A stretch of DNA of 64,000 bases, from the UHGV virus genome UHGV-0134996, one strand, 5' to 3'. The DNA is from a virus. The position numbers were made by a program, and so were the translations under genes. Of this stretch, positions 1 through 52,742 are shown in pieces. Under the pieces are notes generated by a model. The model ran no database searches. It was not told the origin of the DNA and was given only the letters and a program-made list of their open reading frames with translations. Numbering within the stretch: the first letter of the stretch is position 1; every line of letters begins with the position of its first letter.

Positions 1-674
1 TCAGCCAGTTCGGCAGCCAGGCGCAGAGCTTCGGGCAATGTTTGGGGGATCGCTGGAGAAGCAGCGCTAACCTGCTGCAACTCCTCCAGCTTGTCGATCA
101 GCGAACGGCGGACCGCTTTTGACTCGCGCGCGGCGACTCGCAGGGCTTGTTTGAAAGTCATGGTGATAATGTCTATGTTTGCACCATTTTTGCGACCTAC
201 ACTTTTTGTGTAGGTCTCACCTTCAAGCTCATCTACAACCTTCTCAATAAACTTATTATTTCTTACTAATGGTTCCCCACATAACTTACGCGCCTCATTA
301 ACCATCTTTAACAGCGTCTGGCTGTCGATTGTGTCTCCGGTGTTGGGGATAGCATCCATGACCGGTGCTGGTGTGGTTGCTGTCAAAGGCTTTGTAACGA
401 CAACATCTGGTTTGCTTGCTTTCATTCTGTGTGCCTCCTTGCGTGTTTCGGCTGCGACGGTTGCGTAATTCAGATGCCCCTGTTCGAGCAGGTATTCGCG
501 GATATCAGACAACAGAATGCGGTGAACAGCGTTCTTGTCCTTTCTCCGGTAAAGTTGTTTGGTGATCATGAAGTAGTTGGCAATAACACCCGGTATATCC
601 CTGGTACTGATACAGGATGTGTGCTGTTCAATTGCCTCAATCATTTCTTCACGGGTGACTAATGACGTTCTCAT
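1..674 (-). CDS. ant: Antirepressor Ant-like (immI-like copy 1), N-terminal ~224 codons; gene runs past window start
   Basis: ATG at 674-672 (minus), open frame to position 1; ~70% aa identity over aligned region to complete 346-aa Ant-like ORF at 51153-52193; clear nucleotide similarity to 51520-52200. Confidence 0.7.
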   Translation of the reverse strand, partial: MRTSLVTREEMIEAIEQHTSCISTRDIPGVIANYFMITKQLYRRKDKNAVHRILLSDIREYLLEQGHLNYATVAAETRKEAHRMKASKPDVVVTKPLTATTPAPVMDAIPNTGDTIDSQTLLKMVNEARKLCGEPLVRNNKFIEKVVDELEGETYTKSVGRKNGANIDIITMTFKQALRVAARESKAVRRSLIDKLEELQQVSAASPAIPQTLPEALRLAAELA

Positions 675-892
675 CGTCCCTCCTGAGCAGAAGTGTTAAC
701 AGGGAGGCACCAGTAACTGAGAGAATTGCGCGAGTTAGTTGAAAAACGGGCAGTAAAAATGCAGGGGCCATCAGGCAATTGAGAGCGTGCCTCATCTTCT
801 GTCGGTGCAATAACGAAGTGATAGTGACGTTTTTGGCAGGAGTAAAAGCGCCAGATAAATTCAGGATGAGTTGGGGTAGGGATAGTAGCCAT
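671..892 (-). CDS. icd: Icd-like small protein (Ash family, cell-division inhibitor), copy 1
   Basis: 73-codon ORF MATIPTPTHPEFIWRFYSC...; stop overlaps ant start (ATGA coupling); paralogue of 52190-52411. Confidence 0.6.
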   Translation of the reverse strand: MATIPTPTHPEFIWRFYSCQKRHYHFVIAPTEDEARSQLPDGPCIFTARFSTNSRNSLSYWCLPVNTSAQEGR

Positions 893-894
893 AT

Positions 895-1130
895 TGGCAG
901 CCTCCTTAGACGTTGGTATGTAACCACCGCAGAAGAGACCAATCTTGCTGGCGGTGGACTGTACGGAGTTGGCCTTACTGGCGTCCAAGGTAACCAGCCT
1001 ACCCGAAGGTAGCCCCATACAGCCCACCATTGTAGAGGTGTGCGTGTACGCCGATACAAAAAAAAGACGCGAGCGGCGTCTGTATCGCCTTAGACTTAAG
1101 CGGGAGGCCAATCCCGGCACCCGTTTTAAT
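895..1130 (-). ncRNA. Candidate c4-like antisense RNA / immI leader (copy 1)
   Basis: Lies upstream of icd as c4 does in P1 immI; UUCG-loop hairpin at 998-1011 conserved in position with copy 2 but with a different stem; boundaries not determined. Confidence 0.3.
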
Positions 1131-1211
1131 GAGGTGCCTGATAAGCATAAACCGAAAATGCCTCAAGGCGCAAGAGGTCAGGTTCAATGTAACATCGGCA
1201 GTCAAAAAACA

Positions 1212-1228
1212 CAATTTATTAGAGCAAA
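1212..1228 (-). promoter_or_regulatory. C1-repressor operator-like 17-mer (15/17 to ATTGCTCTAATAAATTT on minus strand)
   Basis: Plus strand caatttattagagcaaa; sits between pacB stop and immI copy 1. Confidence 0.6.
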
Positions 1229-1231
1229 TAT

Positions 1232-2716
1232 TTATTCGTTAAGCCATGCAAGAGCTTCATCAACCTGCGCTTCGTCTTCGACGCTAAGCACTTCATCCTG
1301 GGGAACATAATCCGCCAGCATAGCGAAACAATATGTATCCCAATGGTCTGGTGAGTGCAGGTTGAGTTTTTTCTTCATATCCTCCTTACTCATCACCTTC
1401 CATTGACCTGCGGAGTTAATCCCTACAGGGATTTTCGACGCTTCCTCAATAGTTTCATTACCCTTATCCAGTCTCATACGACCAGATTTTACTGCCTCTG
1501 CGGCTTGAACGTTGGCATAAGCACGTTTATCAAAGTACAGGCTCTTATCTTCACGGCTATGCATCTTTTTACCCCAGCGTATACGCTGTACGGTAATACC
1601 ATAATGCTCGTACATCAGATCCGCCGTTGCTTTACCCAGGCCATCGCCGTCTATCGCTATGGTGATATTTGGGAATCGCTCAGGATTGCATTCTGCGAAA
1701 ATTTTGGCGGCAAGCTGCGTTTCTGTAACGTCTGTGTATTCCAGCATTCGATAGTTGATTACACGGCGTTTATTTCGCTGGCCGGACACCATCATGATAT
1801 TGATAACGGACTTATCCCGTCCCGTACCACCAGCAACGTCCACACATGCAAGCCAGCCCCATCCTTTTGCAATCTTGACTTTCCGCCGCGTTGCACGTTC
1901 AACCTCATCACGCCCAAGAAGGAAGCCATCCTGTGATTTAGGGAATAGGCCGCGTACCTTAATCATGTACATAGGGTTATCACGCCCGCCGTACTCCGCC
2001 AGCTTCATTTTGATAAATGCTGGCGTTACCAGCGGTGATTCCTCACTGTTAAGCGTGATCGCCGTATAAACGCCATCTGGGTTACCAGGACGCTTGGCCA
2101 GTTTATGGTGAGTATCGTAGAAATAGCCGCTTGGGCGTGTAGGCTGTGACAGTAATAAGATGCGGTTATCCTGTCCGGTAAGAGCACCGGTGATGATACC
2201 GAAAGCTCTATCACTGACACCGGAGGCTTCATCGATAATATACAGAAGATGATCTGCGTGTTCACCGGCGAGAGCTTCTTCACTTCCCAGACGAAAGCCC
2301 TTCGGTACTACAGTCCATACACCTTTACCAGTAACCTCATAGAAAGCGGTTTCTGTCAGAACAAAATAATCAGCAAGCCATGGAAAACGGCTGGTGGCAG
2401 TAGCCCAGTTTATCTTGATGTACTTGAATATACCGGTCATTACCTGCTGAATTTTGTTCGCAACGATAATGGCGCGGGCACCGGGATACATGATTATGAA
2501 CAACATGATCATGATAGAAGTCATGTCTGATTTCCCGGTACCGTGACCAGACGAAACAGATGTCTTGCTACCCTGTTCCTGCACAGACTCAATAATCAGA
2601 TCCTGCTGCCAGGTAGGTGTTTTGCCGAATAAAACATCAGCGGCCGCAATCCAGTCATAACGATATAGCGCCACCAGCTCGCGCCAACGTGGATCCGTTA
2701 CGCAACTTCTGGCCAT
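1232..2716 (-). CDS. pacB: Terminase large subunit (PacB-like)
   Basis: 494 aa; Walker A-like GHGTGKS near N-terminus; directly downstream of and overlapping pacA stop; size matches P1 PacB. Confidence 0.85.
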
Positions 2717-4518: not shown

Positions 4519-4535
4519 CAATACATTAGAGCAAT
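4519..4535 (-). promoter_or_regulatory. C1 operator-like 17-mer (14/17)
   Basis: Plus strand caatacattagagcaat upstream of lpa-like gene. Confidence 0.5.
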
Positions 4536-48203: not shown

Positions 48204-48359
48204 TTACCTTTCAGATTCGTAGGCTGTGAAGACAGTGACCTCCGTCTGGCTGGTTCGGATTCGTACCTCGCAGAGGTCTTTCCTCGTTACCAGTGCCGTC
48301 ACAATGACGGTTAAACAGATGACGATCAGAGCGATTAATATCGCTTTTTGCTGCTTCAT
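48204..48359 (-). CDS. hok: Hok/Gef-family type I toxin
   Basis: 51 aa MKQQKAILIALIVICLTVIVTALVTRKDLCEVRIRTSQTEVTVFTAYESER; close to Gef/Hok. Confidence 0.85.
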   Translation of the reverse strand: MKQQKAILIALIVICLTVIVTALVTRKDLCEVRIRTSQTEVTVFTAYESER

Positions 48360-48417
48360 AGCCTGCTTCTCCTTGACCTTTTGGTCGGTAAGAGGCTAAT
48401 CTACGTATGCTAAGCAT
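48211..48417 (-). CDS. mok: Mok-like overlapping reading frame
   Basis: 68-codon ORF overlapping hok in another frame. Confidence 0.5.
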   Translation of the reverse strand: MLSIRRLASYRPKGQGEAGYEAAKSDINRSDRHLFNRHCDGTGNEERPLRGTNPNQPDGGHCLHSLRI

Positions 48418-48540
48418 AGATATGGCCTCAGATTAATGTTAAGCGTCTTGCAGGACGCGTAATGTTATCTGGGGCTTTCTTCTATCTGCTTTTCGGGTAA
48501 TGCCTGAAGCAGATAGCCTCAAGCACCCGCAACGATTGTA

Positions 48541-50581: not shown

Positions 50582-50598
50582 AAATTTATTAGAGCAAA
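50582..50598 (-). promoter_or_regulatory. C1 operator-like 17-mer (16/17)
   Basis: Plus strand aaatttattagagcaaa, ~70 bp upstream of kilA start. Confidence 0.65.
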
Positions 50599-51152: not shown

Positions 51153-52193
51153 TTAAGACAAGGACGCCACTGGTTTTAACAAGCCAGCATCAAGTAGCTT
51201 GCGAGTCAACCACTGCTGGCCTTTACCCGTTAATTGGGGCGTCAGCCGTATCTGGTAGCCATTTTCATCATCCAGCACCACTTCTTTCACCGTGAAATAC
51301 CCGGCGTTGATGTACTGTTGGCGCGGTACGTTTTTGCGCGCACCAAAAGCCATGAGAATGCCGTTCTGGCGCAACCATGAGAAAAGGGCGTTTTGCTTAA
51401 GTCCAACGACCTTTGCAAAGTTCCCGATCAGGATTCCATTAGCCACTGATACCCGGTCGGCAAAATCGACTTTAGGGGCTGCGGCCACCAGCTGTTGTTC
51501 CAGCTGCATTTTCTGTTCTGCCAACTCGGCAGCCAGGCGTAGAGCTTCTGGTAATGTTTGGGGGATCGATGGGGCAGGGGAGTTTGCCTGCTGCAATTCT
51601 TCCAGTTTGTCGATCAGCGAACGGCGGACCGCTTTTGACTCGCGCGCGGCGACTCGCAGGGCTTGTTTGAAAGTCATGGTTATGACAAGCATTGATGTTT
51701 TGTTCATTTTTTCCACTACACTTTTTGTGTAGTGCTCACCATCAAGCTCATCGAGTATTTTTTCGATGAATTTGTTGTTCCGAACCTCTGGTTCCCCACA
51801 TAACTTACGCGCTTCATTGACCATCTTTAACAGTGTCAGGCTGTCGATTGTGTCTCCGGTGTTGGAGATAACATGCACTGCTGGTGATGGCGTAGCTGAA
51901 GCAACAGGTGCTGGTTTTTCAACATTCAAATTATTACCGGTCATTCTGCGCGCCTCCTTTCTCATTTCTGCTGCCACTGTTGCGTAACGTAGACGTCCTT
52001 GTTCAATCAAATAATCCCTGATCTCGGCTATCAGTAGCCTGTTGATCACAGCCTTATCTGTTCGGGTATAAAAACGTCTGGTTATCATGAAATAGTTGGC
52101 AATTGCGCCGGGGATCTCCCGTGTCGGCATACAGGTTGTATGCAAAGCGATCGCTTCGGCTATTTCATTACGGGTGACGAGAGGTGTTTTCAT
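51153..52193 (-). CDS. ant: Antirepressor Ant (copy 2, complete)
   Basis: 346 aa; C-terminal Ant/KilAC-type domain; ATGA-coupled to icd. Confidence 0.8.
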   Translation of the reverse strand: MKTPLVTRNEIAEAIALHTTCMPTREIPGAIANYFMITRRFYTRTDKAVINRLLIAEIRDYLIEQGRLRYATVAAEMRKEARRMTGNNLNVEKPAPVASATPSPAVHVISNTGDTIDSLTLLKMVNEARKLCGEPEVRNNKFIEKILDELDGEHYTKSVVEKMNKTSMLVITMTFKQALRVAARESKAVRRSLIDKLEELQQANSPAPSIPQTLPEALRLAAELAEQKMQLEQQLVAAAPKVDFADRVSVANGILIGNFAKVVGLKQNALFSWLRQNGILMAFGARKNVPRQQYINAGYFTVKEVVLDDENGYQIRLTPQLTGKGQQWLTRKLLDAGLLKPVASLS

Positions 52194-52411
52194 AAACCCC
52201 CCTGAACGTTGGCAGAGAAGGGGAGGCTCCAGTAACTAAGTGAATTGCGCGAGTCAGTTGAAAAACGGGCAGTAAAAATGCAGGGGCCATCAGGCAATTG
52301 AGAGCGTGCTTCGTCTTCAGTTGCTGCGATAACGAAGTGATAGTGGTGTTTTTTACAGGAATAGAAACGCCAGATGAATTCTGGGCGTGCGCAAGGATTG
52401 GCATTAACCAT
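52190..52411 (-). CDS. icd: Icd-like small protein (Ash family), copy 2
   Basis: 73 aa; GAGG RBS. Confidence 0.65.
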   Translation of the reverse strand: MVNANPCARPEFIWRFYSCKKHHYHFVIAATEDEARSQLPDGPCIFTARFSTDSRNSLSYWSLPFSANVQGGL

Positions 52412-52640
52412 AGTTACGGCCTCACAATCAGGTTTAACAACCTGCTACCCGCTGCTAAACAGGTGGCAGGACGTGACGGGGTTAGCAGACTGGCGATTGT
52501 GAAACCAGCAGGCCGAAGCCTCCCCATCACGCCCCACCATAATTTGGGCGTAACGCGGTTTTACGGACACAAAAATACCGCAATATCGGATATCTGCGGC
52601 TGTCCGCACAATCATTCAGGCTGCTAAACCCGGTCGCAGA
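52412..52640 (-). ncRNA. Candidate c4-like antisense RNA / immI leader (copy 2)
   Basis: UUCG hairpin at 52510-52521; inverted GCTAACCCCG / CGGGTAGC pairs; boundaries not determined. Confidence 0.35.
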
Positions 52641-52725
52641 ATTTGCTACGACGGCGGAACTATAAGCCTGAACGATTAAAAGGTCAATATGATGCGAAAA
52701 GATAGCATTCGCGACTTAAAAATAC

Positions 52726-52742
52726 AAATCTATTAGAGCATT
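52726..52742 (-). promoter_or_regulatory. C1 operator-like 17-mer (15/17)
   Basis: Plus strand aaatctattagagcatt upstream of c4-icd-ant. Confidence 0.55.

Follow-up and report, generated by a model that had tools for sequence, protein, structure and literature searches.

A second immunity-I-type module with its own C4 recognition sequences lies beside pacB in a P1-like phage-plasmid

Two c4-icd-ant modules in one P1-like genome

We analyzed a 64,000-nucleotide (nt) stretch of the virus genome UHGV-0134996, hereafter the window, which is P1-like phage-plasmid DNA and carries two modules resembling the immunity-I (immI) operon c4-icd-ant of phage P1. In P1, the antisense RNA C4 represses the synthesis of the antirepressor Ant, and Ant1/Ant2 antagonise the C1 repressor (PMC8546580). 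The original prediction of two such modules was borne out: C4, icd and ant were located in both copies, on the minus strand in each case. Copy 1 (1-1231), next to pacB, is the subject of this study, and copy 2 (51153-52742) is the canonical immI. The annotation of the P1 record served as reference for C4, for the recognition sites a1, b1, a2 and b2, for the operator Op51 and for the promoters P51a/P2c4, and RNA families were called at the Rfam gathering scores (C4, RF01695, 45 bits; isrK, RF01394, 50 bits; c4-a1b1, RF03163, 46.7 bits). Read in the direction of transcription, copy 1 holds a C1-operator-like site, an a1/b1 leader, a terminator, C4, the a2/b2 targets over the icd ribosome-binding site, icd and ant, as follows:

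1212-1228, minus strand: C1-operator-like site TTTGCTCTAATAAATTG, a 15/17 match to ATTGCTCTAATAAATTT, 4 nt past the pacB stop codon and placed like Op51 of P1
1186-1214, minus strand: candidate operator-overlapping promoter TTGTGT-17-TACATT, analogous to P51a of P1 (TTGTAT-17-TATCTT)
1144-1173, minus strand: candidate IsrK-type promoter TTGCGC-18-TATGCT, with a putative start near 1137, the start of the Rfam isrK model
1060-1137, minus strand: IsrK-like leader RNA (the a1/b1 element) of two hairpins, Rfam isrK, 60.8 bits
1105-1111, minus strand: a1, TTGGCCT, in the loop of the second hairpin of the leader
1088-1095, minus strand: b1, GTCTAAGG, single-stranded
1065-1081 (stem-loop) and 1058-1065 (T-run), minus strand: intrinsic terminator from a terminator scan, ending the IsrK-like leader
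947-1034, core 953-1028, minus strand: C4 antisense RNA, Rfam C4, 75.9 bits
982-990, minus strand: b', CCTTGGACG, loop of C4 hairpin 2
969-975, minus strand: a', AGGCCAA, single strand after C4 hairpin 2
936-942, minus strand: a2, TTGGTCT, within the C4 target region 901-942
904-912, minus strand: b2, CGTCTAAGG, overlapping the icd Shine-Dalgarno sequence AAGGAGG (901-907)
671-892, minus strand: icd, 73 amino acids (aa), RefSeq 'host cell division inhibitor Icd-like protein'
1-674, minus strand: first 224 codons of ant (Ant1 form), which continues beyond the window edge
423-425, minus strand: Ant2-like in-frame internal start with AAGGAGG just before it
1232-2716, minus strand: pacB, 494 aa, the upstream neighbour; copy 1 starts directly past its stop codon
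2716-3909, minus strand: pacA, which precedes pacB

The icd start, previously placed at 893, belongs at 892, and icd and ant share the sequence ATGA (671-674), in which the stop of the one overlaps the start of the other, the same as in P1. The copy 1 C4 aligns with the Rfam model over its full length and without non-canonical pairs, scores above the C4 of P1 itself (68.8 bits), and has a minimum-free-energy fold in which a' and b' are both unpaired. The two candidate promoters were placed solely by their position.

Copy 2 and its relation to copy 1

Copy 2 is the canonical immI with the exact recognition loops of phage P7. Its leader is 89-94% identical to those of P1/P7, and kilA with its operator follows, as in P1. 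Its parts are:

52726-52742, minus strand: operator, the equivalent of the copy 1 site at 1212-1228
52613-52665, minus strand: c4-a1b1 motif, Rfam, 55.5 bits
52621-52627 and 52606-52613, minus strand: a1 and b1, P7 type
52459-52544, core 52462-52538, minus strand: C4, Rfam C4 above threshold with a full-length alignment
52452-52458 and 52422-52429, minus strand: a2 and b2, P7 type
52190-52411, minus strand: icd, open reading frame (ORF)
51153-52193, minus strand: ant, ORF

Between the copies, nucleotide identity is 58% in the leader, 79% in icd and 77% in ant, and protein identity is 73% for Icd and 74% for Ant. The earlier estimate of about 70% identity in the N-terminal region of Ant agrees with the 68% that we find over the 224 in-window residues, and identity rises to 86% from residue 171 onward. 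Both Ant proteins end in a C-terminal ANT/KilAC domain; for copy 1, the C-terminal third lies outside the window and was read in identical plasmids, described below. The stretch formerly described as highly similar and reaching into ant (781-885 versus 52300-52405) turns out to lie wholly inside icd at 75% identity, and the most similar stretch of the copies is 714-833 (87-95%). With a nucleotide divergence of 23-42% between the copies, we rejected an assembly artefact or a recent duplication as the source of the second module.

The regions upstream of icd had been taken as unrelated. This does not hold, as both contain a full-length Rfam C4 and share one layout: a C1-operator-like site; an element of two hairpins in which a1 occupies a loop and b1 is single-stranded; a hairpin resembling a terminator; C4; and finally a2 and b2. 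At relaxed thresholds each leader also matched the Rfam family of the other, below the gathering score: copy 1 reached 20.5 bits (E = 0.0067) on c4-a1b1 at 1097-1150, and copy 2 reached 43.7 bits on isrK. These reciprocal matches suggest that the isrK and c4-a1b1 families describe one kind of element, and the two leaders are homologous C4 leaders from separate subfamilies, with copy 1 of the IsrK type. In Rfam, isrK belongs to no clan and c4-a1b1 to clan CL00128; given the segments 1060-1150 and 52571-52665 of the window, isrK may belong in the C4 clan as well.

The window has 11 sites resembling the C1 operator (up to 3 mismatches), where chance alone would give 0.33. Apart from those of copies 1 and 2, they lie at 4519, 16121, 18214, 18263, 21887, 31937, 31948, 35629 and 50582; those at 31937-31964 form an overlapping inverted pair, and 50582-50598 is the equivalent of the kilA operator.

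Recognition code and orthogonality

To read the specificity of each module, we derived the recognition sites by laying four leaders (P1, P7, copy 1 and copy 2) side by side, which gave the following code:

a': P1 CTGTCAA; P7 and copy 2 CTGCTAA; copy 1 AGGCCAA
b': P1 TCACTAAC; P7 and copy 2 TCACAATC; copy 1 CCTTGGACG
a1: P1 TTGACAG; P7 and copy 2 TTAGCAG; copy 1 TTGGCCT
b1: P1 GTTAGTGC; P7 and copy 2 GATTGTGC; copy 1 GTCTAAGG
a2: P1 TTGACAG; P7 and copy 2 TTAGCAG; copy 1 TTGGTCT
b2: P1 GTTAGTGA; P7 and copy 2 GATTGTGA; copy 1 CGTCTAAGG

Copy 2 thus matches the P7 specificity type exactly, in loops and in targets, and copy 1 has a code of its own. Pairing was scored as fixed-register base-pair counts between C4 segments and targets. 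An unconstrained RNAduplex search, in which every C4 segment was matched to the full leader downstream of it, had separated b' well; it did not discriminate a', because short spurious sites scored well (e.g., UAGCAG in GGGUAGCAGG), and it was set aside in favor of the fixed-register counts.

The loops of copy 1 fit its own sites, which supports the reading of copy 1 as a further immI-like module whose C4 specificity differs from that of copy 2. Namely, a' pairs with a2 through six Watson-Crick pairs and one G-U of seven, b' with b2 through seven Watson-Crick pairs and one G-U of eight, a1 with a' through seven of seven Watson-Crick pairs, and b1 with b' in eight of eight including one G-U. On the targets of copy 2, the copy 1 C4 forms only 4/7 pairs at the a site and 2 (plus 3 G-U) of 8 at the b site. 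This is a worse match than that of the P1 C4 on P7 targets (5/7 and 6/8), and the small differences between P1 and P7 have been reported as the basis of their heteroimmunity (PMC6906374). Paired a and b sites for each C4 were found nowhere in the 64 kb except in its own leader. As the copy 1 code differs from the P7-type code of copy 2 at most positions, the two locks should be orthogonal, and the comparison of sites supports a dual specificity of the two modules.

Genomic context beyond the window edge

Position 1 cuts copy 1 inside ant, and we therefore followed the module in plasmids that contain it. The segment 1-1230 is 100% identical to the E. coli plasmid NZ_CP104510.1 and 99.9% identical to NZ_CP100487.1. 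In both, ant is an intact 351-aa gene, and in the identical plasmid the ANT/KilAC domain occupies Ant residues 239-340 (108.7 bits), beyond the window edge. The repressor gene c1 (283 aa) lies 33 base pairs (bp) beyond the ant stop codon in both plasmids and is convergent with ant; coi, cre and ref lie further on past c1, as in P1. The pacB and c1 stop codons of P1 are 24 bp apart, so the copy 1 module amounts to a 1.64-kb insert replacing that spacer. The suggestion that copy 1 takes the place of c1 consequently fails: with c1 directly following ant, it has been displaced and not replaced.

The ant gene of copy 1 is an uncommon mosaic: coverage of 1-1230 reaches 80% or more in only 3 of 657 plasmid records. 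Most relatives that share the leader type of the window (W type, below) match just about 259 nt of the 5' part of its ant, with a leader that is 99% conserved.

Prevalence and natural variants

The insert is widespread. Its leader adjoins pacB in 272 of the 591 PLSDB records that hold this pacB end (about 45%), and in 259 of 606 complete E. coli genomes with this pacB end (5,426 genomes searched). The W-type leader stands beside pacB in 103 plasmid records, and loops exactly as in the window occur in 29 IMG/VR contigs, all pacB-adjacent and P1-like, with a leader conserved at 99%. Both modules are present in RCS47, JL22 and vB_EcoM-673R5, and RCS47 carries the same insert with the same boundaries as copy 1.

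Earlier work had touched on this arrangement. An ant between pacB and c1 was noted for RCS47, pTZ20_1P and other P1-like plasmids, c4 not being mentioned there (Venturini et al. 2019, PMC6906374), and a D6-like plasmid had been observed to contain a second c4/icd region (PMC6799933). A literature search for dual immI returned only these brief notes and nothing on the specificity of the second C4; the genome papers of D6 and P1 might already describe allelic c4 types. No part of copy 1 is new in kind, the C4 mechanism being decades old and the insert already present in published genomes.

Several natural variants depart from the common form of the module. In the IMG/VR locus L059, the b2/Shine-Dalgarno region and icd are fused to pacB-internal sequence, without C4 and the a1/b1 leader, a deletion that would leave icd-ant without an antisense lock. 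Locus L098 (975-2803) has the W-type leader-icd-ant unit in tandem duplication. A gap of about 1.3 kb separates icd and ant in L116 (7418-8731), and about 0.9 kb lies inside icd in L118 (12019-12935), both probably insertion sequences.

Coordinated allelic diversity of loops and targets

We compared loop alleles in 80 IMG/VR loci found with the copy 1 Icd as query, together with the window, P1, P7 and RCS47. The pacB-c1 locus showed five loop combinations, which we term W (that of the window) and R1 to R4; the four R types draw a' from GTCTCAA or GTTCCAA and b' from CCTTTGAC or CCTTTTGC, the a and b alleles assorting independently. The sites a1, a2, b1 and b2 have changed to match the loops in all five combinations. 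The pacB-c1 insert of RCS47, for example, has an allele other than that of copy 1 (a' GTCTCAA, b' CCTTTGAC), and its four targets are altered accordingly. Among 31 unique R-type leaders, most of the recurrent variation from the start of C4 up to that of icd consists of two-base changes in b', a', a2 and b2, accompanied by matching changes in a1 and b1; columns 330, 351 and 353, close to where icd begins, also vary recurrently. The region of the candidate IsrK-type promoter is conserved between the W and R groups.

The canonical locus goes beyond the two classical types, with seven or more loop combinations; one is a P1/P7 hybrid, others use three additional b' alleles (TCATGTAC, TCGTAAGT and TCATTCGT), and each has matching a1, b1, a2 and b2. 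When C4 variants are compared, compensatory change is found at 13 of the 22 stem pairs, a count that rests on seven of nine sequences, L076 and L079 aligning only in part. The C4 of phage D6 (L088, 3117-3204) has the loops of the R2 allele seen between pacB and c1 in P1-like contigs, and specificity alleles are thus common to two phage-plasmid families.

This coordinated diversity, which we take as a sign of selection on the code, is the most interesting by-product of the analysis. It allows a broader, tentative proposal, to which we give somewhat less than even weight: P1-like phage-plasmids might run two orthogonal antisense-RNA locks on two antirepressors, each diversified into many alleles by coordinated triple changes (a1/a'/a2 and b1/b'/b2) with a and b recombining freely, in a frequency-dependent arms race over superinfection immunity. 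If so, the second-locus alleles common to D6 would mean that the contest could reach across phage families.

A second operon or a silent duplicate

We consider it likely that copy 1 is an intact second immunity-I-type operon with its own orthogonal C4 lock on its own antirepressor. By homology to the immI of P1 and the isrK locus of Gifsy-1, this would extend to its expression, RNA processing, repression, the action of its Ant on C1 and the resulting immunity phenotype. Transcription would begin downstream of the C1 operator, and most transcripts would end at the terminator, yielding a short IsrK-like RNA that bears a1 and b1. Read-through transcripts would be processed to a C4 RNA of about 77 nt, whose a' and b' would bind the a2 and b2 sites that lie over the ribosome-binding site of icd. 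With icd translation blocked, translational coupling would prevent the synthesis of Ant1/Ant2, which would otherwise inactivate the C1 repressor. A lysogen with both locks would silence incoming antirepressors of either type, and an infecting double carrier would bring an antirepressor that escapes residents with one C4 type only.

Several observations count against a functional second operon. A consensus scan of 600-1400 at a cut-off of 9/12 returned no minus-strand promoter, and the candidate promoters of copy 1 reach 7/12, a score that the proven P51a of P1 shares. The a2 and b2 sites each need one G-U wobble, while the other types match perfectly. The variants with insertions or without C4 (L116, L118 and L059) indicate that the module is dispensable. 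Moreover, the binding of copy 1 Ant to C1 is putative, and the integrity of ant in the molecule of the window itself is presumed from the identical plasmids.

The weak promoter matches, the wobbles in a2 and b2 pairing and the insertions or deletions in some relatives would suit a different explanation, in which copy 1 is a decaying or silent duplicate, or an old acquisition, that is non-functional and kept by hitch-hiking. The original prediction had likewise allowed for a decoy or decaying duplicate. We regard this as very unlikely, because icd and the 351-aa ant are intact, the Ant2-like start and its Shine-Dalgarno sequence are retained, the C4 outscores that of P1, the W-type leader is 99% conserved in the 29 IMG/VR contigs, the insert is present in about 45% of P1-like plasmids (272/591 records), and loops and targets change jointly among alleles.

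Likeness to known systems

The closest counterpart of copy 1 is the immI of P1/P7 (c4-icd-ant1/ant2), which has the same part order, including the icd/ant overlap and the nested Ant1/Ant2, and protein identities of 73-75% (Icd) and 72-75% (Ant). The leaders are only 58-61% identical, that of copy 1 belonging to the IsrK-type subfamily; loops and targets differ at most positions; and copy 1 sits between pacB and c1, whereas the P1/P7 immI lies next to kilA-repL.

The isrK-orf45(STnc1160)-anrP locus of the Salmonella prophage Gifsy-1 has, as published, an IsrK-type leader with a terminator, a stable processed RNA of about 80 nt and an antirepressor made through translational coupling (Hershko-Shalev et al. 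2016, PMC4825925). A transcript there either ends at the terminator of IsrK or continues past it; the longer RNA is translationally silent and gives rise to the stable species, and the short IsrK switches on antirepressor translation in trans and is required for induction (PMC4825925). These experiments, made on a leader of the same type, lend support to the parts proposed above for the short and long transcripts of copy 1. Gifsy-1 differs from copy 1 in that the RNA region is read there as an upstream ORF, the downstream antirepressor is a different one, and neither icd nor a C1 operator is described. By the published description, orf45 has two start codons 12 nt apart, and the double ATG at the 5' end of the copy 1 C4 (ATGGTGGGCTGTATG) has the same spacing. 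An ORF from ATGGTGGGCTGTATG (893-1030, minus strand) reads in frame into icd. We rejected it as a genuine extension of Icd: the same frame meets a stop codon in RCS47-type and P1 leaders, so the fusion in the window is probably incidental.

The complementarity of a1/b1 to a'/b' in copy 1 implies that its short RNA could likewise counteract C4, as in Gifsy-1. Taken further, copy 1 might be an induction switch and not an immunity determinant, its short IsrK-like RNA sponging C4 in some conditions, freeing Ant and triggering induction of its own prophage. The isrK match above threshold, the terminator in place, the perfect or near-perfect pairing of a1/b1 with a'/b' and the role of IsrK in Gifsy-1 induction are all in keeping with such a switch. 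However, the a1/b1 element also exists in the immI of P1, and the copy 2 leader matches isrK at 43.7 bits, so this feature is not special to copy 1. A switch of this kind is moreover compatible with a second immunity operon and does not exclude it, and as a replacement for that reading we judge it highly improbable.

Relatives of the leader are also found outside the P1 group. Phage D6 and D6-like plasmid prophages have an IsrK-type leader, C4 and icd like those of copy 1 (with Rfam isrK and C4 matches in D6). Their antirepressor is of the Rha/Roi/KilA type, the genome context is another one, and the D6 allele differs from the W allele of the window. The copy 1 leader is about 79% identical to leaders of Stx-converting and related lambdoid phages, compared with 58-60% to P1/P7, and IsrK-type leaders are present in chromosomal prophages. 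Together with the R2 loops of the D6 C4, this similarity is what would be seen if copy 1 came from D6-like or lambdoid phages and served mainly as a cross-family defence or weapon, its C4 silencing their antirepressors or its Ant inducing them. We find this unlikely. The exact W loops occur in 29 IMG/VR contigs, every one of them P1-like, and no outside partner of the W allele was found in IMG/VR; furthermore, at 73-74% protein identity, icd and ant are of the P1 kind and differ from the Rha/Roi-type antirepressors present in D6 and in Shigella phage Ss-VASD.

In Ss-VASD, two antirepressor-like genes flank an Rfam sRNA-Xcc1 match (L087, 2134-2217; 79.6 bits), and an IsrK-type leader and C4 lie upstream of this match. 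The leader of this phage feeds directly into an antirepressor that starts with MATIP, the first residues of the copy 1 Icd. The immunity region of phage P4 (seqA-CI RNA-seqC) is described as a processed antisense RNA between complementary sites and is named as a structural homologue in the work on IsrK (PMC4825925). The CI RNA of P4 controls replication genes through transcription termination, without an antirepressor.

P1-like phage-plasmids, which are common in both E. coli and Salmonella, bear resistance genes, and whether they coexist or displace one another depends on immunity. If copy 1 works as a second immunity operon, immunity type would be a two-locus, multi-allele trait in place of the classical P1/P7 pair, which would affect predictions of superinfection, induction and plasmid spread, and the alleles would constitute a natural set of orthogonal antisense-RNA/target pairs.

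Other RNA features of the window

The Rfam scan also identified a sok antitoxin RNA at 48354-48528 on the minus strand (114.9 bits); a toxin-antitoxin locus of the hok/sok type is thereby implied close to the canonical immI/kilA region. Three tRNA genes lie on the minus strand at 29426-29498, 31129-31201 and 31207-31279 (Rfam tRNA, 64.7-74.5 bits).

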